The position numbers were made by a program, and so were the translations under genes. This document shows positions 17,297 through 57,546 of a DNA stretch of 61,573 bases, one piece after another (position 1 is the first letter of the stretch; every line of letters starts with the position of its first letter). The stretch is from a virus (lineage: Duplodnaviria > Heunggongvirae > Uroviricota > Caudoviricetes). The DNA lies in IMG/VR virus record IMGVR_UViG_2778261122_000001, positions 1-61,573 of that record; one strand, given 5' to 3'. Under the pieces are notes generated by a model. That model was not told the DNA's origin and did not search any database. It was given only the letters and a program-made list of their open reading frames with translations.

Positions 17297-17623
17297 TCAG
17301 GGACGTGACGGCGTAAAGATAAATTGTCTCTTCACTCCCTGACAGGGACGATTCTTTTCAAATCGCCATTTCGCCATGGCCTTCACCACTTCATCACGAA
17401 ACAAATTATGAGGCTCTGAGCGGAGAAAAACGATCCGTGTCACAGTCCCATCAGCACCAATATCGAACTTAACCTCAACCAGTCCCTTGATATAATTTGC
17501 TGCAGCATATTCCGGATATCGTGGATACACCGTCACTAATTGCCGGGGCTCATCAGCTTTTTGCTGCGAGCATCCCACTGCCAGGACAGATAACAGAAAA
17601 AGTAGTAAAAGGCGTCTTTTCAT
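17297..17623 (-). CDS. Lipoprotein with TonB C-terminal-like domain (lambda right-end envelope protein type)
   Basis: Start trimmed to MKRRLLLLFLLSVLAVGCSQQ lipobox; position between bor and cos. Confidence 0.5.
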   Translation of the reverse strand: MKRRLLLLFLLSVLAVGCSQQKADEPRQLVTVYPRYPEYAAANYIKGLVEVKFDIGADGTVTRIVFLRSEPHNLFRDEVVKAMAKWRFEKNRPCQGVKRQFIFTPSRP

Positions 17624-18105
17624 TTTTATTCCTACGGGTCTTATTCTGACAATATATCCTGTGTTCCAGACTGCCACATCACCACATCCTGTGCCATTAT
17701 CTGACTCACATTACATACATCGCATCGGGATACAGTAGTAGCACTTTCTGTAATACAGCTTCCGGTTTCTTCCACCATCGCACCGGGATAAACCCGCGAA
17801 TCATTAACGCGGTAAAAACTCGGTGTGCATCGTTTTTGATTATTCCCGCACACTCACGCAGAAGGAATTCCCCGTCGGGCTACGGTCATGGTTAATGCGG
17901 GAATACGGCGACGATACAGCGCAGCTAAAAGGGTAATGGACGGATAGACCGGTTTATTTCATTCCACAGGATTCTGAGTGTCCCCAACTTCCTCCAATAG
18001 TCTGAGCGTACACCTATATAGTTTTAATTTTCATCAATCCATTTAACTATCGTTTAATTGTTGTCACATAGGATTCTGCCGTTTTTAACAATGCAGGATA
18101 ATAAG

Positions 18106-18430: not shown

Positions 18431-18907
18431 CTATCTGCACTGCTCATTAATATACTTCTGGGTTCCTTCCAGTTGTTTTTGCATAGTGATCAGCCTCTCT
18501 CTGAGGGTGAAATAATCCCGTTCAGCGGTGTCTGCCAGTCGGGGGGAGGCTGCATTATCCACGCCGGAGGCGGTGGTGGCTTCACGCACTGACTGACAGA
18601 CTGCTTTGATGTGCAACCGACGACGACCAGCGGCAACATCATCACGCAGAGCATCATTTTCAGCTTTCGCATCAGCTAACTCCTTCGTGTATTTAGCATC
18701 GAGTGCATCAGCAGCACGCTGGCGCTGCTGCATGTCAGTAATGGTGGCGGTCGCCTGCTTCAGCTCACTGACTTTTTTATCACGCTGTTCTTTATAGGCG
18801 ATGGCGTTATCACGGTAATGATTGACCGCCCACGACAGGCAGACGATGATGCAGATAACCAGAGCATAAATAATCGCGGCGACTCTGCTCACTGATCTAT
18901 CCCCCAA
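18431..18907 (-). CDS. Rz: Spanin inner-membrane subunit Rz
   Basis: N-terminal TM segment, coiled coil, C-terminus matches lambda Rz. Confidence 0.85.
18490..18672 (-). CDS. Rz1: Spanin outer-membrane lipoprotein Rz1, embedded in Rz
   Basis: 60 aa, lipobox VVVGC, proline-rich, embedded +1 frame. Confidence 0.8.
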
Positions 18908-19422
18908 CAGGCTAATGCGCTTTCCTGGTCACGACGAATAACCTGCCCATAGCAGTTATTTGAACGTATGCGGCAATCGCGCCCACCATCTTTTATCCAC
19001 CAACGAATCGCCTCGCATGCACCCTTACGATCACCGGCATTCAGCCGCTTATAAAACGTCGACGGGAAACACTTACCGGGGCCAATGTTATAGGGACAAA
19101 ATGACGCTATACCCGCTTTCTGTGGTTCGGTCAGAGGTACTTTAATATTGCGCTCCACCCATGCCAGCGCCTTATCACGTTCAATAGCGTTAACCTGGTC
19201 GCATTTTTCCTTCGACAGCTTCATTCCCGGTATGACGGGCTTACCATCCACCATTGTGGCACCACGACAGATGGTCCATATACCGGAACCATCGCGGTAT
19301 GCCGTAGTGTGGTTACCCTCTTTTTCATCCAGAAACTGGTCAAGTATTTGAGGAGCAGACGCGCCTGCAGCAATCAGCGCCAGAACAGCAGCTGACAGGC
19401 CGTATTTGATTTTTGCGCTCAT
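18889..19422 (-). CDS. R: Endolysin, T4-lysozyme-type with N-terminal signal-anchor (SAR-like)
   Basis: 177 aa; hydrophobic N-terminal segment then lysozyme domain; resembles Qin RrrQ. Confidence 0.8.
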
Positions 19423-19477
19423 GGATATTTATCAGGATGCTACCAATGAAAGATACTGGAAAGCCAACTGCAAAAAG

Positions 19478-19792
19478 CTAACAACCCGTAATCGAGTTAT
19501 CAGAACTGTTAATTTTTATGGTATACCGCACCTTTGAACAGGGGCGCGTTTCTGGCAACAGCTCGTCCCCTTCACATAACCCGGCAGCAACATCCAGGAA
19601 GACCTGTCTGATGCTCCTTCTGGCTGCTGCCTCATAAAACTCCAGCGCGGCACCTTCAACACGGTCCAGCGAGATGTCCAGGTCAAAAATTTCACCGTCA
19701 AAGCGTTTTTTGTCCCGTAACGCTAAAGTTACCGTAACTTTATTCTCAAAATTGCGGATCCCTTTCACAATCAGTTCATAGTTTTGAGTCAT
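19478..19792 (-). CDS. Hypothetical protein between holin and endolysin
   Basis: 104-aa ORF tightly packed between S and R; family not confidently recognised. Confidence 0.5.
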   Translation of the reverse strand: MTQNYELIVKGIRNFENKVTVTLALRDKKRFDGEIFDLDISLDRVEGAALEFYEAAARRSIRQVFLDVAAGLCEGDELLPETRPCSKVRYTIKINSSDNSITGC

Positions 19793-19796
19793 TGAA

Positions 19797-20012
19797 TTAC
19801 TCTTCCCGTGCAGCCTTACGCTTGTCTTCTTTAATCTTGAAATAAAGGTTTGTCAGATACGTCAGCAAGCCAAATACCAGACTACCCAGCACACCTATTG
19901 CCGCCCACTGTGAGGGCGTGACTTTATCGAGCAACTGTAAAAACCAGTACCCGGCACTACCTGCTGAGGTGCCATAGGCGACACCCGTTGTTAACTTATC
20001 CATGGATTTCAT
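19797..20012 (-). CDS. S: Class II holin (phage 21 S-type pinholin)
   Basis: 71 aa, two TM segments, MKSMDK dual-start motif, charged C-terminus. Confidence 0.85.
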
Positions 20013-20078
20013 AACCCCACCTCGCAGATGCGGGTGCTGTGTAATGGAAATAAAAAGGCCACCTGCGTGGCCACCAGA

Positions 20079-21131
20079 TTATTTCCCCACCAGCTCGTTT
20101 ATCTCTTTCACTGTCTGGTTAAACCGCTCTGACTCAAGCTCAACACCTAAGGCCCGACGCCCCAGCGCCATTGCTGCTTTTATTGTGGAACCGGATCCCA
20201 TAAAAAAATCAGCAACCAGATCACCAGGTCGACTACTGGCATTGATTATTTGCCTGAGCATATCCGCCGGTTTCTCACACGGATGTTTACCCGGGTAGAA
20301 CTGAACGGGTTTATGCATCCAGACATCGGTATAAGGCACGGAGACTGATACGGAGAAATAGCGCCGGAGAGATTTAAACTCATCCAGCAATTCAGAATAT
20401 TTGCGATTCAGTGAATCATAAGATGCCACCAGCTGGTGGTGTGGTTGTTCCAGTTGTTGTTCCTGAAACTTCTCTGCCGCTATACGGGAAAACAGTGCCT
20501 GTAACTTCCGATAGTCAGCCTCATTCGGCAACTGCCACTGACTGGCACCAAACCAGTGGGAAACCATATTTTTCTTACCTGTGGCTTCGGCAATTTGTTT
20601 TGCCGTTATACCCAGTTCGGCACGAGCATCCCTGAAATACGATATCAGCGGTGCCATTATGTGCTGTTTGAGTTCCCTTTCTTTTGCCGCATAGCTGTCA
20701 CTTTTGCCGCGATATGGCCCCTGGTAATGTTCAGCAAACAGAACGCGCTCTGTGGCAGGAAAATATGCGCGCAGACTTTCTTTATTACACCCATTCCAAC
20801 GTCCGGACGGCTTCGCCCAGATGATATGGTTAAGCACGTTGAAACGTTCACGCATCATAATCTCAATATCAGATGCCAGGCGATGCCCACAGAACAGGTA
20901 AAGGCTTCCGGCAGGTTTCAATACCCGCCAGAACTGGGCCAGACAGTGGTCCAGCCACTTAAGGTAATCTTCGTCCCCTTTCCACTGATTGTCCCAACCG
21001 TTGGGTTTCACCTTGAAGTAAGGCGGATCGGTAACAATCAGGTCAATGGAATCATCAGGCAGGGACTGAATAAAATGCAGGCAATCAGCGTTGATTAAAT
21101 CAACACTGTTTATTTTTACAGTATTTTTCAT
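20079..21131 (-). CDS. DNA methyltransferase (amino-MTase, DPPY motif)
   Basis: DLIVTDPPY near N-terminus and FFMGSGST AdoMet motif near C-terminus (motif IV before motif I). Confidence 0.8.
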   Translation of the reverse strand: MKNTVKINSVDLINADCLHFIQSLPDDSIDLIVTDPPYFKVKPNGWDNQWKGDEDYLKWLDHCLAQFWRVLKPAGSLYLFCGHRLASDIEIMMRERFNVLNHIIWAKPSGRWNGCNKESLRAYFPATERVLFAEHYQGPYRGKSDSYAAKERELKQHIMAPLISYFRDARAELGITAKQIAEATGKKNMVSHWFGASQWQLPNEADYRKLQALFSRIAAEKFQEQQLEQPHHQLVASYDSLNRKYSELLDEFKSLRRYFSVSVSVPYTDVWMHKPVQFYPGKHPCEKPADMLRQIINASSRPGDLVADFFMGSGSTIKAAMALGRRALGVELESERFNQTVKEINELVGK

Positions 21132-21281
21132 GGATCAGTAAGCGTAACTCTGGTAGGCTCACTCTGCTTTTGCGCTAAAGCAGTGGGCCGTGGTTCGCTT
21201 GTGACCAGTAAGCATGAGCGAATGGCTGGCAGGTGCTACCAACACCCACCAGCCGCCCATTTTCACAGCAGGAAACCGCCA

Positions 21282-21509
21282 TTACTGGCAGCGTCTGAAT
21301 TTATTCCCGTACCCGCCGTTATCCTTCGCCAGACCCGCCAGAACTAACTGAGTCAGTATTAACTGGCACCGGGCTTCGCTTACTCCGGTAGTTCTCGTCA
21401 TCATGCGTGGCGTTACCCACTTGTCAGCAGGTAAGAAATGAAGGACTGCGGCGGCGGTTTCTGTCATATCTTGCTGTTTTAGCATGTCTTTTTCCCTTCT
21501 GGTTAACAT
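21282..21509 (-). CDS. Hypothetical small protein
   Basis: 75-aa ORF upstream of the MTase; no recognised family. Confidence 0.3.
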   Translation of the reverse strand: MLTRREKDMLKQQDMTETAAAVLHFLPADKWVTPRMMTRTTGVSEARCQLILTQLVLAGLAKDNGGYGNKFRRCQ

Positions 21510-21755
21510 GACATACCAATAACTCTTGTCTAAAAAGCCAGCAAGATAAAAAGTCAGTATTCACGACCACCAGCGTGTTTACTGTACTGCACCAAGTTTA
21601 CAGGTACAAAAAAACCGCTCAGCGGCGGGTTTAAGTTGTGTGGCGAAGTAACCATTCTTAACAGCATATTTGATTTTTTACGATTGTAAACGGTTGATTA
21701 TTCATCTCCAATAAAAATAATTGTGTGGGTATGCCCTTAACAATGGATAAGAAAC

Positions 21756-22429: not shown

Positions 22430-23692
22430 CTATATATCCCAGATCTCGCCATTATAAAGATGCTCGCTAATCTTTGGTGGATTTTTCTTAACATTAGGGT
22501 GACTCGCCAAAATGAGTCTTAATGTCCTGATAGCAACATAGGCCTTTATAACAATATCCCTTTGTTGTTTGAAATACTCCTGATTGAAGTTATTGTTATC
22601 GATGGCATGTGCTGGTTTTTGTCTAAGTTGCCTTACCTTTCTAAAGGTGTCAATCATATCTTTAACTGGCGCAGGATCTGTTGGCTGGAAATATTTATCA
22701 AGCCATGACTCAAGTATTTGTATAGTGCCTTTAGGCCTTACGACTATTTTCCCATCCTCGCGCTCCTCTTCAATTTCAAGCTCCACATCATCCTCGAAGA
22801 ATTTCTTATTAAGATTGTCGGACATCATTTTATCCAACAAAAGCATGAAATTATTAAATTCTGAACGAGTTGGTCGCAAAAGAAACCCGAACTCTTTAGG
22901 CATGTCATCGCTGTAATCTTTTCTAAAAAGTTCAGCCTTTCCTATTAACACGCTCATTTTATTAATTATTTTAAGTTCTTCCGTAAATGCACTAAAAATA
23001 GAAATTTTAGTCCCCCAAGCTCCTAATATGCTTGCAGCATAGTAATCGGGATGCAACTTTATATCTCCTTTTACTTCTTTCGCTGCCCAAACATTTTGGT
23101 GTTCAGGACTGAGATCACTCAGGTATCTCAAGAAAACTGCAACATATCTATTTAGACTGTCATCATAAGCAAACCCAAATGTTTTAAGCAATATTTGATC
23201 GTGTTCAGGAATATTGTCTGATTCATAATACTCATCCGTAATAGATATTTCCCCATGTATAAAGTCTGTAAAGTATGAATAACGTGGATCATTTCGGTAG
23301 TATTCCAAAACAGACAAATCAAAAGTTCTATAGTCAAATTGTCCCGCACCTCTTGCTAGCTCCATTTCATATGGTGACTTACTATAAGCAGAAAGCTTAC
23401 TAGATTTGGCTAGCATATTTTCATGGGGATATAAGCATATGTAATCTAAACTCTCTGAATCATCGAAATTCTTAAGGATATTATCCTTGGGGATTTTTGA
23501 AAACGCTTTAATATGAGGGTTATCCCCAAAACAAGCAGTTAAAATATCATCTTCGATTCCTTTTCTAACCAAAACTTTGAAAGTTTCGCTTTTGATATCG
23601 AAAAGACCATCTAACTTATAAATAGGCAATCCATTAAAATCACCTGATGAAAAATATTGTTCCTCGACTATTTCATATATTTCTTTAATCAT
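22430..23692 (-). CDS. Hypothetical 420-aa protein in AT-rich insertion downstream of Q
   Basis: Long uninterrupted ORF with AT-rich codon usage unlike flanking genes; no motif recognised. Confidence 0.6.
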   Translation of the reverse strand: MIKEIYEIVEEQYFSSGDFNGLPIYKLDGLFDIKSETFKVLVRKGIEDDILTACFGDNPHIKAFSKIPKDNILKNFDDSESLDYICLYPHENMLAKSSKLSAYSKSPYEMELARGAGQFDYRTFDLSVLEYYRNDPRYSYFTDFIHGEISITDEYYESDNIPEHDQILLKTFGFAYDDSLNRYVAVFLRYLSDLSPEHQNVWAAKEVKGDIKLHPDYYAASILGAWGTKISIFSAFTEELKIINKMSVLIGKAELFRKDYSDDMPKEFGFLLRPTRSEFNNFMLLLDKMMSDNLNKKFFEDDVELEIEEEREDGKIVVRPKGTIQILESWLDKYFQPTDPAPVKDMIDTFRKVRQLRQKPAHAIDNNNFNQEYFKQQRDIVIKAYVAIRTLRLILASHPNVKKNPPKISEHLYNGEIWDI

Positions 23693-32941: not shown

Positions 32942-33291
32942 TGGAGCCATACAGCCTCACACTCGATGAGGCCTGTCATTTTCTCAAGATATCCAGACCG
33001 ACTGCCATTAACTGGATACGCACAGGGCGTCTTCAGGCAACACGCAAAGATCCCACTAAGAATAAATCTCCTTACCTCACAACACGACAAGCCTGCATTG
33101 CGGCTCTTCAGTCTCCGCTGCATACTGTCCAGGTGAGCGCGGGTGATGGCATAACAGAGGAAAGAAAATGTCACTCTTCCGCAGAGGTGAAATATGGTAC
33201 GCCAGTTTCACATTGCCGAACGGTAAAAGATTTAAACAGTCTCTTGGAACAAAGGACAAAAGGCAGGCGACAGAACTCCATGACAAGCTAA
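32941..33291 (+). CDS. xis: Excisionase-like DNA-binding protein
   Basis: [36 protein letters not shown] pattern directly upstream of int; 3' extent uncertain. Confidence 0.45.
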
Positions 33292-34331
33292 AGGCTGAAG
33301 CATGGCGGGTCAGCAAACTTGGTGAAATACCTGATATAACGTTCGAGGAAGCGTGTGTCAGGTGGCTTGAAGAGAAAGCACATAAAAAATCACTGGACGA
33401 TGACAAAAGCCGGATCGGATTCTGGCTTCAACATTTCGCAGGAATGCAACTAAGAGACATTACTGAATCAAAAATTTATTCAGCAATGCAGAAAATGACG
33501 AACCGGCGTCATGAGGAAAACTGGAAACTCAGGGCAGAAGCATGCAGAAAAAAAGGGAAACCTGTTCCAGAATACACGCCAAAACCAGCGTCCGTTGCAA
33601 CGAAGGCTACGCATCTTTCATTTATAAAGGCCCTACTAAGAGCCGCAGAGCGTGAATGGAAAATGCTGGATAAGGCACCAATTATTAAAGTGCCTCAACC
33701 AAAGAATAAACGGATCCGCTGGCTGGAGCCCCATGAAGCACAAAGGCTGATTGATGAATGTCCGGAGCCATTAAAGTCTGTTGTTGAATTTGCACTGGCA
33801 ACAGGCTTAAGACGCTCGAACATCATCAACCTTGAATGGCAACAAATAGATATGCAGCGCCGGGTGGCATGGATAAACCCGGAAGAGAGTAAATCAAACC
33901 GCGCAATTGGCGTTGCGCTGAATGATACTGCATGTCGCGTATTGAAAAAACAAATCGGGAATCATCACCGTTGGGTATTTGTGTACAAGGAAAGCTGTAC
34001 CAAACCAGACGGAACGAAAGCGCCAACAGTAAGGAAGATGCGGTATGACGCAAACACAGCCTGGAAAGCGGCGCTGAGACGGGCTGGTATTGATGATTTC
34101 AGATTTCACGACTTGAGACACACCTGGGCAAGTTGGCTGGTTCAAGCCGGAGTCCCGTTGTCAGTGTTACAGGAAATGGGAGGCTGGGAGTCTATCGAAA
34201 TGGTTCGTCGATATGCTCACCTTGCACCTAATCACCTTACCGAACACGCACAGCAAATAGACTCGATCCTGAACCCATCGGTCCCAAATTTGTCCCAGTC
34301 AAAAAATAAGGAAGGTACTAATGATGTGTAA
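33168..34331 (+). CDS. int: Tyrosine integrase, P22 Int type (thrW-targeting)
   Basis: [33 protein letters not shown] matches remembered P22 Int; C-terminal R...HxxR...Y catalytic pattern. Confidence 0.9.
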
Positions 34332-34345
34332 CTTATTGATTTAAA

Positions 34346-34392
34346 TGGTGCCGATAATAGGAGTCGAACCTACGACCTTCGCATTACGAATC
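34346..34392 (-). other. Partial tRNA-Thr(CGU) 3' end, 47 nt: attachment-site core between the two prophages
   Basis: Reverse complement GATTCGTAATGCGAAGGTCGTAGGTTCGACTCCTATTATCGGCACCA equals the 3' portion of E. coli thrW from the anticodon loop to CCA; 5' half absent. Confidence 0.8.
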
Positions 34393-34727
34393 TGTAGCAC
34401 CAATCATAACTATCTGTTTTAGCAAGCATTAACCGCATTCACTAACCTATAGTTGATGGCACAAACAGAAAGTTGATGCATGATGTTGCCATGTGTATGT
34501 CACAAATACGGCACAACGATCTTCAAACATGTAGCCACACATCCACAGAAGAGCACAAAGCCTTGCAATCCAGTGCAAAGCTTTGTGTGTTTAAATTTTG
34601 TCTAAGCATTCTAGTGAAAACATAGTAAAATCAGTAACGGCTGGAAATCATTCAATACTCGCACTATCGAAAGTTAACCAGCCAGCCGCAGTATCCTATC
34701 ATGACAAGTTACTGCGGCTTTTTATAT

Positions 34728-35024
34728 TTAACGGATCAACAGCCAGACCAGCAGACACACCACCACTGGCACAGCAAAATCCAACAAACTTCCCACATCC
34801 CACACGCGTGGATCAAAACCGCCCCACCACGGCATATTCATACGCTTGCCATGCCCGAACATTTCTATCCAGCGATATTCTGCCTGGGTGTGTTCTCGGG
34901 ATATAAAAAACACACACCCTATTACAGCCCCAGTTATCGGATCATTAAATAAACTCAAAAACAGAAACTGTAGCGATAATGATATTAGCACATGAATGAA
35001 ATGAGATATGTCCATACTTACCAA
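34728..35024 (-). CDS. Hypothetical small membrane protein downstream of tailspike
   Basis: 98-aa ORF with about three hydrophobic segments. Confidence 0.35.
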
Positions 35025-36676
35025 CTCAAAAGAATATTTACATCACCTACGCTAATAGGATTTGGAGTGACATTTTGAAATGTTACCCTGACGATATTAT
35101 CGGAAACAGCAATAGCATCTGAAATTATACCTATTGGGAGATCATTCAACACTGTCATTTGTAGAGGAACTTCATTAGATATGATATATCCGGTCAATGT
35201 TCTTTGCATTGAGAACCTGCCACTTGCTGAAATCGTGCCAACATTCAACGTTGATTTTACTTTCTTTCCTGAATATGTAACACCATTCAAATCTATATGT
35301 GAGTTATTTATTAATGTCAACGCAGAATATCCTGAAAAATCACTATTAGCCCCGGCCTGCCTTACTACAGAGAATTTATCAGCTCGTATTGCAAAGTCAC
35401 CAGTTGCTTCCGATGCATTAATGTTATTGGTAACAACAACACCTCCATCAACACAGTTAATAGCATATGTTGCATTTCCTTTTATCGTTATGTTTCTTAA
35501 ACTTAAATAAGATGCAAACTGGCATGTGGCAAAAGCAATTGCTCCATCTGATAGATACCCATCTGAAAATTCAACAGACGAAGAATACCTTGATCCTATA
35601 CACGATTGAGTTCTCGGTTTAAAAATAGATCCGCCTTTAATATAACAATCCGCCGCATGCTCAACCTTAAGAGAGTCTTCCCCTGAATTGTAAGAAGTGA
35701 ATTCTGTGCCCCTCACGCTTGCACTGTACACACATTCAAGGGAAATATTAGCATTTGATATATGAACCCCATTAACCCCAAACTGAGATCCAGAGCCAGA
35801 AACAAGAACTCCACAAACAGAGCCTCCATTTACAATCAAATTGTTTGCATCCCAAACTACGCAACTACCACATTGTGAATCAGGGTAGTATCCACCTCCG
35901 ATAATGAGTCCGTAATCACCATCTGTTTCAACAGCAACATTTTTTATGCTGTATATATTTGATCTAAATTGTATTCCTTTTGTTGTTTTTATTATGGAAT
36001 TTATTGGTTTTGCCACAACCCCGTTAACTGGGCCTGAAATTATACCATTGTGACTCATATCCAATGTTAAAACATTTCCATCCTTGGAAATTATCATCGC
36101 TCCACATGAAATGTCTCTCCTGCCAGAAAGTATACAATATTTACCAACATGAAAATTATCTGCATTCTGAACAGAAACTTTAAATATACCAGTCAACACA
36201 TCATAAGAAACATCATATACATTAACAGGACTATAATCCACACCCAATATATTCAGAGGAATATTATCAAACTCATCATAATGTGAATAACCATCAGGAA
36301 TGTGAATATACTGCCCGTATTCTATCTGTGATCTAAGCTGATCGGGATCGTACTTCAGCACATTAGGAAAATAGAACTGCTGTGATCCATATGCATCGTA
36401 CACAGCCATAGAATGCCCTTGTACAGTAACGAACTTAGCAATCTGTCCGTTATATACTGGATACCCTGCGGCATTGATGACGATTGGCTGTGCAACAGGA
36501 ACGTGAGAACCATCTTCGTTTTCTACATAAACCTGAATCTGGTTTTCTGGATTTACCGGGTCAGTATCAATTTTACCGATATAAATTTTGCCATTGGCTA
36601 CGGCTTTAAAAGAACGCGCCATAGTGAAGAGTTGCGATGGCATCGATACGATCACATTGGCTGTAATGTCTGTCAT
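35018..36676 (-). CDS. Tailspike protein with P22 gp9-type N-terminal head-binding domain
   Basis: First ~110 aa ([43 protein letters not shown]) match remembered P22 gp9; remainder divergent. Confidence 0.85.
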
Positions 36677-38578: not shown

Positions 38579-39178
38579 GTGATTGAGATAGGCGTTATGG
38601 CCATCCTGAATCAAGAGCCAGGAAAAATTGAAAACGTTTTTTCTGACATATCAACATCTATCGAGCGTTCAATTTCAGACTTTGATCGCAGTCATAGCGG
38701 CTCTTTGTCTAAAAAACAGGCTTCTGAAGCTCTTAGCAAGATCTACTGCGTTATGTCACCTGTAGAGGAAGTTTGCAAAAAGTACATTACATTCATTGAC
38801 ATATTAAGTAATGGTACGGAAGAAGATATTTCCTCACTTGATATTCAACATGACGATGTAGATATGTTGAACGATCAGATATCTAAGCTTGATTATGGTA
38901 TCGCGAAACTGTTGTATACCTTCTTCATCGCTGAGAACAGCGATGCGTGGAAGCCCCATATGTCAACTCTTACAACAATGAAAAACCACTCAATAAATAC
39001 TTTTATAGAATACAAAAGGCTAACTATGGGGCTTGTGACGCTAGCAATGCAGCACATACCACTATCATATGCTGAACCTGAAGAGTTCACTGAAGAAGAG
39101 TTGGCTTCATTCAAGAAATCAGTTGAAGATTCACATAAAAGATTTGGCATGGAAGCACCAAAATGGAAAACCGCATAA
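38579..39178 (+). CDS. Hypothetical protein X1 (first gene of cluster downstream of mnt)
   Basis: 199-aa ORF, GTG start, AT-rich, no TM segment, no recognised motif. Confidence 0.55.
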   Translation: MIEIGVMAILNQEPGKIENVFSDISTSIERSISDFDRSHSGSLSKKQASEALSKIYCVMSPVEEVCKKYITFIDILSNGTEEDISSLDIQHDDVDMLNDQISKLDYGIAKLLYTFFIAENSDAWKPHMSTLTTMKNHSINTFIEYKRLTMGLVTLAMQHIPLSYAEPEEFTEEELASFKKSVEDSHKRFGMEAPKWKTA

Positions 39179-39582
39179 GCATTGTTGTAGATGCAGCGGC
39201 TGGACCATTAGAACAATACTTTGCGAAGGCTCTTGCAAACTACAAAAACAGAGGCACCGTTTCAGCTTATCTTGGTAAAATTGGTGGGTTTGAGAGAAAC
39301 CATCACGCCGTCTTATCGGGAATTTACAAGTCGCACATCAGGATCCCTGGAGTAGATGATCCTTGGTTAAAAACAACGCCAATACATCGTAGAGTTAGCG
39401 ATAACTTTTTGATATTTGCGGTACACAACACATATCCAATTCATATCCAGATCATTGCTATCATTAAACCTGATGGTCATGAGAAGGTAAAAAAACTATT
39501 GCCAGCCATCATTGATATAACTGAAAAAAGATTCCAATCTCTAAATGAGAGGGAGCTTAACTCGTTGATTTCATACAAATAA
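39163..39582 (+). CDS. Hypothetical protein X2
   Basis: 139-aa ORF overlapping X1 by 16 nt; no recognised family. Confidence 0.55.
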   Translation: MENRISIVVDAAAGPLEQYFAKALANYKNRGTVSAYLGKIGGFERNHHAVLSGIYKSHIRIPGVDDPWLKTTPIHRRVSDNFLIFAVHNTYPIHIQIIAIIKPDGHEKVKKLLPAIIDITEKRFQSLNERELNSLISYK

Positions 39583-39604
39583 AATATCAACTAAGGAGGT
39601 TGGC

Positions 39605-40027
39605 GTGTTTGGCATATTAACGAGAAGCAAGATAAAAAAATTAAGGGCGGAACTTGTCGAAACACAAAAATTAGCTTCACATTTTTACAAAATGAAACAC
39701 GACGCTGAAGAGCGTGCATTCGTTGAGTTATGCGACCTATCTATTCGTATGGGGGTAGAGCCAGATGTAGCGGCAAAAACTCAAGAAGGCGTTAATATAC
39801 TTGCAGATGTTGTTTTAAACAGACAATATGCGTTTTATCTAAACGAAAAAGCCATTCAAATTTACTCGCAAATTTTCCTCTTGGAAAAAAGGAGAGGAAC
39901 TCGCGATAGAGAAGAGTGGCTAAATGAAGTTGTTAAAAAATCTGGCTGGGAAGTTGTTTCATCAGAGCTACCTTTTATTTGTGCTGATTTAATCGAAGAG
40001 GCAAAAGAGCGCCTATCCGATGGTTAG
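39605..40027 (+). CDS. Hypothetical protein X3
   Basis: 140-aa ORF after GGAGG; no recognised family. Confidence 0.55.
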   Translation: MFGILTRSKIKKLRAELVETQKLASHFYKMKHDAEERAFVELCDLSIRMGVEPDVAAKTQEGVNILADVVLNRQYAFYLNEKAIQIYSQIFLLEKRRGTRDREEWLNEVVKKSGWEVVSSELPFICADLIEEAKERLSDG

Positions 40028-55071: not shown

Positions 55072-55415
55072 AGCGTCTTACCTTTTAGAAAGATGAGCCT
55101 GTTCGCACAGAAAAGCCGCCCCGAGATGGTCGCCACCATATACGGCAGTTCTCAGGCTCAGCTTTCTGAAAGACTCGGGATTGTTACGCGCTGCGATGCG
55201 CGGTTTACTGCAGATGTAAAAAAGCCCCGCTACTGCGAGGCTAAATCCTGGTGTTTGTGATGACTGGCCCTTATCTCAACGCAGCCCCTTACCGCGCGCC
55301 AGATGCTCAATATCAAGCATCAGCAATGAGATGTTTAATCTGGATTCACTCCAGAAGTGATCACCACCCTGTCTACAGAGCCAGATGTGAAGGATGATGA
55401 GTAAAATTATCGCTA

Positions 55416-55895
55416 TCATCGAAGGCATTGCGTCCCGATGTATTCCTGAAGCGTTCTCAGTGCTGTTTGGTCGCGGATAATTCCGTCCCGGATACCGAGA
55501 ACGTTTCGTCCAGCAACTGGAGAGAGTTCGACGGTGGCATCATTGCCCATGCCGGAGGCGCTGGAGGTTTCGGCTGAGGATGGCACAGGGCATTTTCCTT
55601 TGACGAGCACCCTGCCACCATTATCAAGCTTGCGCCGAAGAGCATCATTTTCAGCTTTCGCATCAGCTAACTCCTTCGTGTATTTAGCATCGAGTGCATC
55701 AGCAGAACGCTGGCGCTGCTGCATGTCAGTAATGGTGGCGGTCGCCTGCTTCAGCTCACTGACTTTTTTATCTCGCTGTTCTTTATAGGTAATGGCGTTA
55801 TCACGGTAATGATTAACAGCCCATGACAGGCAGACGATGACGCAGATAATCAGAGCGGAAATAATCGCGGTTAACCTGCTCATTGCTGCCCCCAC
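55416..55895 (-). CDS. Rz: Spanin inner-membrane subunit Rz
   Basis: N-terminal ~80 aa almost identical to prophage A Rz; C-terminus differs. Confidence 0.85.
55457..55663 (-). CDS. Rz1: Spanin outer-membrane lipoprotein Rz1 (embedded)
   Basis: MRKLKMML...AGCSS lipobox, proline-rich. Confidence 0.75.
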
Positions 55896-56377
55896 AAACA
55901 GACTTCACGCTCAATATCACGACGGGTCATCAGCCCTTTCCATTGCTTACCGCCAGCGTATGTCCAGCGACGTAGCTGGTCACATGCGCCTTTGATATCG
56001 CCCTGGTTTATTTTGCGAAGAAGCGTCGATGTTCTGAAATTGCCTGCACCCACGTTGTAAACGAACGAGTAAAGAGCGCCGCGCGTTGTTTCCGGTATAT
56101 CGACTTTGATGTACGGGTTAATTTGTCTGGCGACCGTGGCAAGGTCTTTATTCAGGAGGGCTTTGCATTCTGCTTCGGTATACGTTTTACCGGGAATGAT
56201 GTCTTTTCCTGTATGCCCGTAACATACAGTCCATACACCAACTATGTCTTTGTAAGGATTATGTCTCACACCTTCCAGACCATCGTTACCACTTGGGCCA
56301 GTGATTAACACAGATGCTATGGCAATAGCCCCGCCACCAATAGCAGCAGCAACGGCTTTTCGTAATGATGGAGGCAT
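55880..56377 (-). CDS. R: SAR-endolysin (phage 21 R / RrrD type lysozyme)
   Basis: 165 aa; matches remembered E. coli RrrD/R21. Confidence 0.85.
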
Positions 56378-56592
56378 TATTCACCTCTCGCAGCCTTTCG
56401 TCTGTCTTCTCTGATTTTGAAATACAGATTTGTCAGATAAGTGAGAAAACCCAACACAAGGCTTCCAAGCACTCCAATCGCAGCCCACTGTGACGGACTG
56501 ACCTGATCCAACCACTGCAAAAACCAGTATCCTGCACTACCAGCAGATGTTCCGTAGGCAATGCCAGTTGAGATTTTGTCCATTGATTTCAT
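56377..56592 (-). CDS. S: Pinholin S (phage 21 S21 type)
   Basis: 71 aa, close to remembered S21. Confidence 0.85.
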
Positions 56593-56862
56593 AGCAACGC
56601 CTCCGCCAGTAACGGATTGCGTAGTTCTTATATTGGGAAGGGGAAAAAAGAAGGCCGCAGCGTAACTATCACTGATGAATTCAGGATAGCCAGTGGCTAC
56701 GGCTCAGTTTTGGTTGTGCTGTTGCTGGGCGGCGATGACGCCTGTACGCATTTGGTGATCCGGTTCTGCTTCCGGCATTCGCTTAATTCAGCACAACGGA
56801 AAGAGCACTCGTGCATTTAAGCCAAGCCCCATAAGGGAGAATGCTCTTACCTGTTACACAGA

Positions 56863-57054: not shown

Positions 57055-57546
57055 CTATCCCATACTGGAGAATTCACCATGATATTTTATCCTGGCATTT
57101 TCCATTGCCTTTCTAGCCTCCTCGATATCGTCAAAACACCCTACATGAATCCTTTTACCATTAACTCTAATTCTTCCAACCCACTTGTTTGCAGCAGAAT
57201 TAAAAGTCACCCCCTTCACACCAGATGAATTGTTTTTCCTCATCTTGCTGTTCCATGAGTTTTGAGTGTTAGTAACAACACGAAGATTGGCTATCCGGTT
57301 ATCAGACCTATCACCATTAATATGGTCAATAACATCGGTTGGCCAATCATTGTAAACCATCAGCCATGCAATTCTATGGACATATAGCCGCATTCCATAA
57401 AGTTTTACCTGCAGATATCCATTTGTTTTATAGCCAACAACAGCGCCATAGATAAATCTAGAGGACCGAGGTGGATTCTTCCATGTAAGAATTCCAGTAT
57501 CTGGATTGTAATTAAAAAGTCTCAATGCATCTTCACGTTTTAACAT
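57055..57546 (-). CDS. HNH homing endonuclease with AP2-like C-terminal DNA-binding domain
   Basis: YVHRIAW...DHINGDRSDNRIANLR HNH motif; C-terminal GVTFNSAANKWVGRIRVNGKRIHVGCF AP2-like. Confidence 0.8.
   Translation of the reverse strand: MLKREDALRLFNYNPDTGILTWKNPPRSSRFIYGAVVGYKTNGYLQVKLYGMRLYVHRIAWLMVYNDWPTDVIDHINGDRSDNRIANLRVVTNTQNSWNSKMRKNNSSGVKGVTFNSAANKWVGRIRVNGKRIHVGCFDDIEEARKAMENARIKYHGEFSSMG

Follow-up and report, generated by a model that had tools for sequence, protein, structure and literature searches.

A probable lambdoid mosaic patch in the Rz genes of two prophages arranged in tandem at thrW

We analysed a window of 61,573 bp, which is the whole of contig NNWE01000030.1 of the draft assembly GCA_002486805.1, and found that its two lysis cassettes share a short block of closely similar DNA at the 5′ end of their Rz genes. 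Judged from the sequence, this repeat is one allele of the Rz 5′ half carried by two otherwise different lambdoid prophages (hereafter A and B). The reading that we favour, with a probability of approximately 0.85, is that of a mosaic patch, that is, an Rz 5′ allele which is present in two tandem prophages at thrW, is reassorted in the phage population and confers a potential for deletion. A feature of this type is a well-known kind of lambdoid mosaic joint, lying in a very common repeat, and as such is already known.

The shared block and the two lysis cassettes

Self-BLASTN of the window revealed that positions 18645-18879 match 55636-55870 with 94.9% identity over 235 bp (12 mismatches, 0 gaps, E=4e-102). 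A second pair was obtained at 19810-20013 and 56390-56593, in the holin genes, with 76.5% identity over 204 bp (E=8e-25), and no internal repeats besides these two pairs were detected in the window. Both pairs are in direct orientation with their genes on the minus strand, and the two copies of the Rz block are spaced 36,991 bp apart. These results agreed with an earlier note on this DNA, which had placed a nearly identical segment of ~250 bp at the Rz 5′ ends of A and B, at coordinates that proved right, and had described direct repeats ~37 kb apart in two prophages. The block and the spanin genes that contain it are as follows:

18645..18879, minus strand: shared block, copy A (BLAST limits; by eye, the homology runs on to the Rz start at 18892)
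55636..55870, minus strand: shared block, copy B (BLAST limits; the homology runs on to the Rz start at 55883)
18648..18781, minus strand: near-perfect core of copy A, 134 bp with a single mismatch at 18715; its counterpart in B is 55639-55772
18431..18892, minus strand: Rz (i-spanin) of A, 153 aa, with a GTG start overlapping the R stop; PF03245, E=2e-51
55416..55883, minus strand: Rz of B, 155 aa, with a C-terminal half that differs from that of A; PF03245, E=1e-28
18490..18672, minus strand: Rz1 (o-spanin lipoprotein) of A, 60 aa, embedded in the +1 frame; PF06085, E=3e-20
55457..55663, minus strand: Rz1 of B, 68 aa; PF06085

In both cassettes the block corresponds to Rz nucleotides 1-245 (codons 1-82), and its identity is graded, with one mismatch in the 3′ 134 bp and ~88% identity in the 5′ 110 bp. 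The core of A is thus divided by its mismatch into two perfect tracts, 18648-18714 (67 bp) and 18716-18781 (66 bp). At both flanks the similarity drops abruptly: upstream, the lysozyme genes have no detectable nucleotide similarity (32.6% amino acid identity), and downstream the Rz 3′ parts of A and B are only 52% identical, with 26 of 74 residues identical from residue 83 to the end, indicating different alleles. The earlier note had included the embedded Rz1 in the near-identity. Rz1 starts at Rz nucleotide 221 in both A and B, and the overlap of the block with Rz1 is limited to 25 nt, its first 8 codons (MRKLKMML); over their lengths of 60 and 68 aa the two Rz1 proteins are 40% identical and again represent different alleles, and this part of the claim had to be dropped. 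The Rz 5′ half in the patch covers the transmembrane anchor and most of the first helical domain.

Rz1 lies wholly within Rz in another frame in both A and B, with lipoboxes VVVGC and MVAGC and the proline-rich stretches PPPPPAW and PPAPPAW, and a hydrophobic N-terminus is visible in the translations of both Rz genes. Both cassettes are therefore predicted to carry an embedded two-component spanin pair of the lambda Rz/Rz1 type. In a search of a phage collection, lambda Rz DNA was 93% identical to the Rz of A over the entire gene, and in a five-sequence alignment the C-terminal half of A's Rz clustered with the allele present in E. coli TUM12368 and A28. This C-terminal half, together with A's Rz1, is probably lambda-type.

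The other genes of the two cassettes are:

19797..20012, minus strand: S holin of A, P21 class II type, 71 aa; PF04971
19478..19792, minus strand: DUF1327 (YdfR-family) gene of A, between S and R; PF07041, E=1e-38
18889..19422, minus strand: R endolysin of A, 177 aa, rrrQ-type; PF00959
18106..18399, plus strand: bor/iss-like lipoprotein gene of A, downstream of Rz; PF06291, with a bor annotation in the A28 relative
56377..56592, minus strand: S holin of B, P21 type, 71 aa; PF04971
55880..56377, minus strand: R endolysin of B, 165 aa, rrrD type; PF00959, E=6e-48

The rrrQ type of A's R was taken from the annotation in a 99%-identical prophage of E. coli E2. The cassette of B has the P21-type arrangement of a 71-aa class II holin directly upstream of the lysozyme, and in A the DUF1327 gene, which is missing from cassette B as seen from the alignment gap, is interposed. 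Judged by eye, the endolysin N-termini of both A and B are Gly/Ala-rich and weakly hydrophobic. The holins had also been called close, which is correct for the proteins (84.5% amino acid identity) and not for the DNA (75% identity). Perfect runs in the holin DNA reach 11 bp at most, and for this reason the holin pair was ruled out as a further site of recombination. Orphan genes near the cassettes were searched with PADLOC and PHROG, which gave nothing relevant to the shared patch.

Two prophages in tandem at thrW

The genes around the two cassettes show that they belong to two distinct phages, A being a lambda-like siphovirus and B a P22-like podovirus, arranged head-to-tail at thrW. The features that define the border between them are:

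33168..34331, plus strand: tyrosine integrase of A; PF00589, 98.7% identical to the integrase beside thrW in E. coli A28
34346..34391, minus strand: hybrid att site at the A/B border, the 3′-terminal 46 nt of tRNA-Thr (thrW)
35018..36676, minus strand: P22-type tailspike of B, the last gene of B, adjoining att; PF09008 Head_binding, E=1e-66

Lambda-like packaging and virion genes are located to the left of cassette A, and to its right are a DNA methylase, Q, RusA, a replication protein, a repressor pair and the tyrosine integrase; this early region of A is CPS-53-like. In E. coli A28, a related prophage adjoins tRNA-Thr and proA, and the homology to the window ends at position 34391, 46 nt into the annotated tRNA. 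After the tailspike, B continues with an antirepressor, Arc/Mnt, ejection proteins, needle, gp10, gp4, coat, scaffold and portal, then the large terminase, an Sf6-type small terminase and cassette B; the neighbourhood of the tailspike includes the P22 gp7, gp26 and gp10 families. Beyond the cassette of B there are an HNH endonuclease gene, located just upstream of the holin, and Q, RusA, NinX and NinB. The sequence between the two repeats is thus phage DNA only, consisting of the early genes and integrase of A, the hybrid att site and the virion genes of B.

The same layout was found in the complete genome of E. coli GF66.2, in which an A-like prophage remnant with the same integrase is followed by att and a P22-like prophage that ends with Erf, anti-RecBCD and integrase, and then by tRNA-Thr and proA. 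The gtr genes that lie between the prophages in GF66.2 were looked for and are absent here, the ORFs at this place being the tailspike and a Bro-N antirepressor. The adjacency of A's integrase, att and B's tailspike recurs in several independent assemblies, and the arm at 34392-34590 also follows the same integrase in GF66.2 and in a Shigella flexneri genome. An exact-match scan for the integrase-att-arm junction gave two matches among species-representative genomes, and the Shigella flexneri genome shares just 33033-34590. No intact tRNA was detected in the whole window; by analogy with GF66.2 only, an intact thrW and the integrase and recombinase of B would be expected beyond the contig ends.

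The direct orientation of the two cassettes is explained by this arrangement, because both phages integrated in tandem at thrW, a cause that the earlier note had missed. Since the interval contains phage DNA only, a deletion between the repeats would cost the host none of its own genes. Its product would be a hybrid prophage, as the note had proposed. No record among the complete E. coli genomes covers at least 80% of 17000-41000 or of 33000-57500, and hence there was no sister strain in which a deletion derivative could be sought.

Spread, reassortment and origin of the patch

The 235-bp block is present in 4,979 of 5,426 complete E. coli genomes (92%), at a median of 2 and a maximum of 8 places per genome, so that the repeat, which the earlier note had singled out as notable, is an ordinary one that typically occurs twice. 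Copies in unrelated strains are 99.1-99.6% identical to that of A, compared with 94.9% for the copy of B. When A's Rz and R were compared with the phage collection, the matches fell into classes with recurring ends at query positions 218 (window 18648), 346 and 464. One class matched over the entire Rz only (e.g. lambda, 93%), another over R only (many Stx phages), a third over the shared block only (query 218-464, e.g. the P22-like SPN9CC, 93.5%) and a fourth over a shorter block (query 346-464). Query position 464 is the R/Rz junction. The recurrence of these match ends among phages shows that the boundary at window position 18648 is a recurrent mosaic joint.

Both recombinant junctions that a crossover in the block would produce were then built in silico and searched for in E. 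coli genomes. E. coli E2 has the junction with B on the left and A on the right as a single uninterrupted match of 98.4%, and 69 genomes match this junction at a coverage of at least 80%. Over 55219-55870 the E2 prophage resembles B (96.3% identity), and over 18645-21631 it resembles A (99.1%). Its diagnostic SNPs are all B-like up to A position 18715 and all A-like from 18782, showing that the switch point lies inside the 66-bp tract 18716-18781. E2 is therefore a natural B-left/A-right recombinant, which speaks for the earlier note's reading of the repeats as recombination substrates, and its recombinant region is joined to another virion module, of the ClpP-capsid fusion type.

The reciprocal arrangement, with A on the left (bor/iss and A's Rz 3′ allele) and B on the right (rrrD and a P21-type holin), was present in 1,286 genomes. 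The one example inspected, E. coli TUM12368, is flanked by lambda-like virion genes and a P22-like nin region, an architecture identical with that predicted for the deletion product. It was rejected as an exact A-left/B-right recombinant, since its Rz 5′ part is a different allele, and for the same reason its joint cannot be mapped to the patch.

Alignment of five Rz alleles revealed three independently affiliated segments (~1-100, 101-197 and 246 to the end), and all four pairings of first and last segments were present. Constant co-inheritance of the Rz 5′ and 3′ halves is thus contradicted both by E2 and by the five-allele alignment. The last ~46 bp of the patch, which contain the Rz1 ribosome-binding site, start codon and first codons, are invariant in all five alleles, probably owing to a dual-coding constraint. 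With its abrupt flanks, and with flank combinations that are reassorted elsewhere, the patch has the appearance of a lambdoid mosaic homology patch.

Recent gene conversion, by which the two resident prophages would have homogenised their Rz 5′ ends after they met in the cell, might account for a 134-bp core with a single mismatch in copies that lie on one chromosome 37 kb apart. We consider it very improbable, because closer alleles are found elsewhere: copies in unrelated genomes reach 99.6% identity to A's copy, well above B's 94.9%, and E2 has A's allele almost unchanged in a different prophage, and the first 100 nt of B group with the alleles of TUM12368 and A28. In addition, P22-like phages such as SPN9CC already carry the patch alone. 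Both alleles were thus in circulation before the prophages met, and with foreign copies nearer to A than B is, there is no sign of conversion between the residents.

Selection alone, with the Rz N-terminal domain and the Rz1 start held constant without any horizontal exchange, would account for the invariant ~46 bp at the Rz1 ribosome-binding site and start, and for these bases only. Outside this stretch, however, functional alleles (TUM12368 and A28) differ by ~20% at the same positions, and the Rz alleles of lambdoid phages do not all share the block sequence, as shown by the phage search and the five alleles. A and B match at synonymous sites too, the fall to 52% identity is abrupt and different flank combinations exist, all of which make it most unlikely that constraint by itself produced the repeat.

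Least credible of all is an assembly artefact, in which a mis-phased or chimeric contig would stand for a single hybrid prophage and a separate 37-kb element: the window is an entire draft contig and its 66-67-bp perfect tracts could be shared nodes in a short-k de Bruijn graph, but diagnostic SNPs occur at least every 67 bp and so allow ordinary reads to phase the copies, the adjacency of A's integrase, att and B's tailspike occurs in other assemblies and the tandem layout in a complete genome, and close relatives of each assembled cassette, over its full length, exist elsewhere.

Recombination potential and comparison with known systems

For the mosaic patch, we asked what a crossover between the two resident copies would require and yield. 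Efficient pairing requires at least 31-34 bp with RecA and 23-27 bp with Red-beta (PMC3945230). The 67- and 66-bp tracts exceed the minima of RecA and of phage recombinases, and in direct orientation they would make a candidate substrate for deletion. A recombination reading of the repeat is thus plausible, as a potential and not as an event. The earlier note had attributed such a deletion to RecA, and the length of the tracts is compatible with this; nothing in the published comparison singles out RecA, as phage Rad52-like recombinases outdo it on short or diverged homology, and a homology of 300 bp with 96% identity gave 6e-7 recombinants per phage (PMC3945230). With 5% divergence and a spacing of 37 kb, a RecA-dependent event should be rare. 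NinB and RusA are encoded in B and RusA in A, and an Erf-type recombinase was found only in the GF66.2 analogue.

We propose that a crossover would take place in the 66- or the 67-bp tract. RecA could carry it out, but a single-strand-annealing recombinase of a phage, acting during induction, is the likelier agent. The crossover would delete 36,991 bp, and the chromosome would keep the early genes of B, with its immunity and replication functions, and its lysis genes, fused to the virion genes of A. The excised 37-kb circle would carry S, R, Q, replication, immunity and integrase genes of A, the hybrid att site and all of the P22-like virion genes; the length of a P22-like genome is near 37 kb. 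By their predicted content, both products look like complete phage genomes. In each prophage the patch marks the exact border between the early and lysis genes on one side and the virion genes on the other. The further proposal that one crossover yields two complete chimeric phages, with the Rz 5′ patch as a de facto universal crossover point for virion modules, seems to us doubtful. That the HNH endonuclease upstream of B's holin might add break-stimulated exchange is pure speculation.

The position of the joint may also be considered in terms of spanin anatomy. Rz consists of two helical domains and a linker, and Rz and Rz1 bind via their C-terminal regions; in lambda, a single stretch of DNA codes both for the flexible linker of Rz and for the periplasmic domain of Rz1, and sensitivity to mutation in the first Rz helix extends to about residue 88 (PMC6139136). 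With the joint located at Rz codon 82 and Rz1 codon 8, Rz1 and the C-terminus of Rz with which it interacts would be exchanged as a unit, and the membrane-anchor and first-helix part of Rz would be exchanged independently. As the patch ends 8 codons into Rz1, the C-terminal half of Rz and Rz1 are expected to travel together.

Taken together, the locus illustrates how lambdoid phages reassort their halves at a short patch in the lysis cassette, how the C-terminal half of Rz is linked with Rz1 and how tandem integration at a tRNA site leads to direct orientation, and it has little import beyond this genome. As a common intra-genomic repeat, the ~240-bp patch can cause prophage rearrangements or ambiguity in assembly. 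If junction reads were found, the pair would provide a simple natural system in which to measure module exchange between prophages.

In comparison with known systems, the repeat resembles the lambdoid mosaic joints described by De Paepe et al. (2014), in which a short patch of high identity has unrelated flanks and is reassorted in the population (PMC3945230). Exchange of the lysis genes R and Rz has been documented for lambda and Dlp12, and lambda recombinants that take R and Rz from Dlp12 are viable (PMC3945230). The partners in that study were an infecting phage and a remnant (PMC3945230), whereas here they are two resident tandem prophages and the event is predicted only. Our literature search on hybrid formation by tandem prophages found nothing specific.

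In tandem lysogens and polylysogens at one attB, two integrase-bearing prophages likewise follow each other head-to-tail in the same orientation, and the attP-like hybrid site between them contains a 3′ fragment of the tRNA. Unlike in the usual tandem lysogens, the two virion types differ here, one being that of a lambda-like siphovirus and the other that of a P22-like podovirus, and the contig does not reach the outer att sites. Lambda-P22 hybrids were reportedly described by Botstein and Herskowitz in 1974, the early and late halves of lambda-like and P22-like phages being said to swap through homologous crossover where segments are shared; laboratory selection produced those hybrids, whereas in the present window it is the substrate that is seen.

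The spanin genes themselves belong with lambda Rz/Rz1 and with the copies RzpD/RzoD and RzpQ/RzoQ of the E. coli defective prophages DLP12 and Qin, which have the same Pfam families and an embedded +1-frame Rz1 downstream of the endolysin, and related prophages are annotated rzpD, rrrD, essD and rrrQ. Compared with the lambda, DLP12 and Qin spanins no functional difference is expected, and what characterises this pair is that A and B share the 5′ allele and differ in the 3′/Rz1 allele.

Contig and thrW junction

The window corresponds in full (1-61573) to contig NNWE01000030.1 of the draft assembly GCA_002486805.1, a contig of 61,573 bp that consists solely of prophage DNA and whose ends truncate both prophages A and B. 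Window positions 25018-46676 were 100% identical to the matching sequence L008. Two elements follow the integrase gene of prophage A:

34346-34391, 46-nt 3' fragment of tRNA-Thr (thrW), directly after the integrase gene
34392-34590, arm of ~200 bp, directly after the thrW fragment

Together, the fragment and the arm mark a hybrid attP-like junction between the tandem prophages, and the unit of integrase, thrW fragment and arm was also present in E. coli GF66.2 and in one Shigella flexneri genome.

Decay of the tandem arrangement in GF66.2

The tandem arrangement of the window recurs in a decayed state in the complete genome of E. coli GF66.2 (L004 1-17609). Only the yfdP-to-integrase end of its A-like prophage is left, and many IS1 copies occur throughout this remnant. 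The adjoining P22-like prophage carries gtrABC, and one of its ejection-protein genes is interrupted by IS3.

Further genes of prophage B

Genes were noted at two positions in prophage B:

38579-40027, plus strand, three genes flanked by the Arc/Mnt region and the ejection-protein genes
57055-57546, minus strand, HNH (homing-type) endonuclease gene between Q and the holin gene

The middle gene of the trio (39163-39582) contains a YafO toxin domain, the first matched an uncharacterised PHROG only and the third was without any match; the trio may represent toxin-antitoxin-like cargo. The HNH endonuclease gene was assigned to phrog_99 (E=5e-76) and gave an additional weak PADLOC 'HEase' match. 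By introducing breaks, the predicted enzyme could promote exchange in the vicinity of the lysis cassette.

Further genes of prophage A

Three genes were noted in prophage A:

17297-17677, minus strand, predicted 126-aa lipoprotein with lipobox LAVGC and a TonB C-terminal domain (Pfam PF03544)
22430-23692, minus strand, 420-aa ORF between the DNA methylase gene and Q
19478-19792, minus strand, DUF1327/YdfR-family gene

The lipoprotein gene has bor on one side and the terminase genes on the other, and its PHROGs family, phrog_1267, is labelled 'Rz-like spanin', an annotation that looks questionable. The 420-aa ORF, which had no match in Pfam, PHROG or PADLOC, sits within an island of 35.6% GC, and in relatives of prophage A another gene occupies the corresponding place; the ORF may encode a cargo or defence function. 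Of the two lysis cassettes, only A has the DUF1327/YdfR-family gene, which separates the holin and endolysin genes there as it does in the Qin-type cassettes annotated in relatives.
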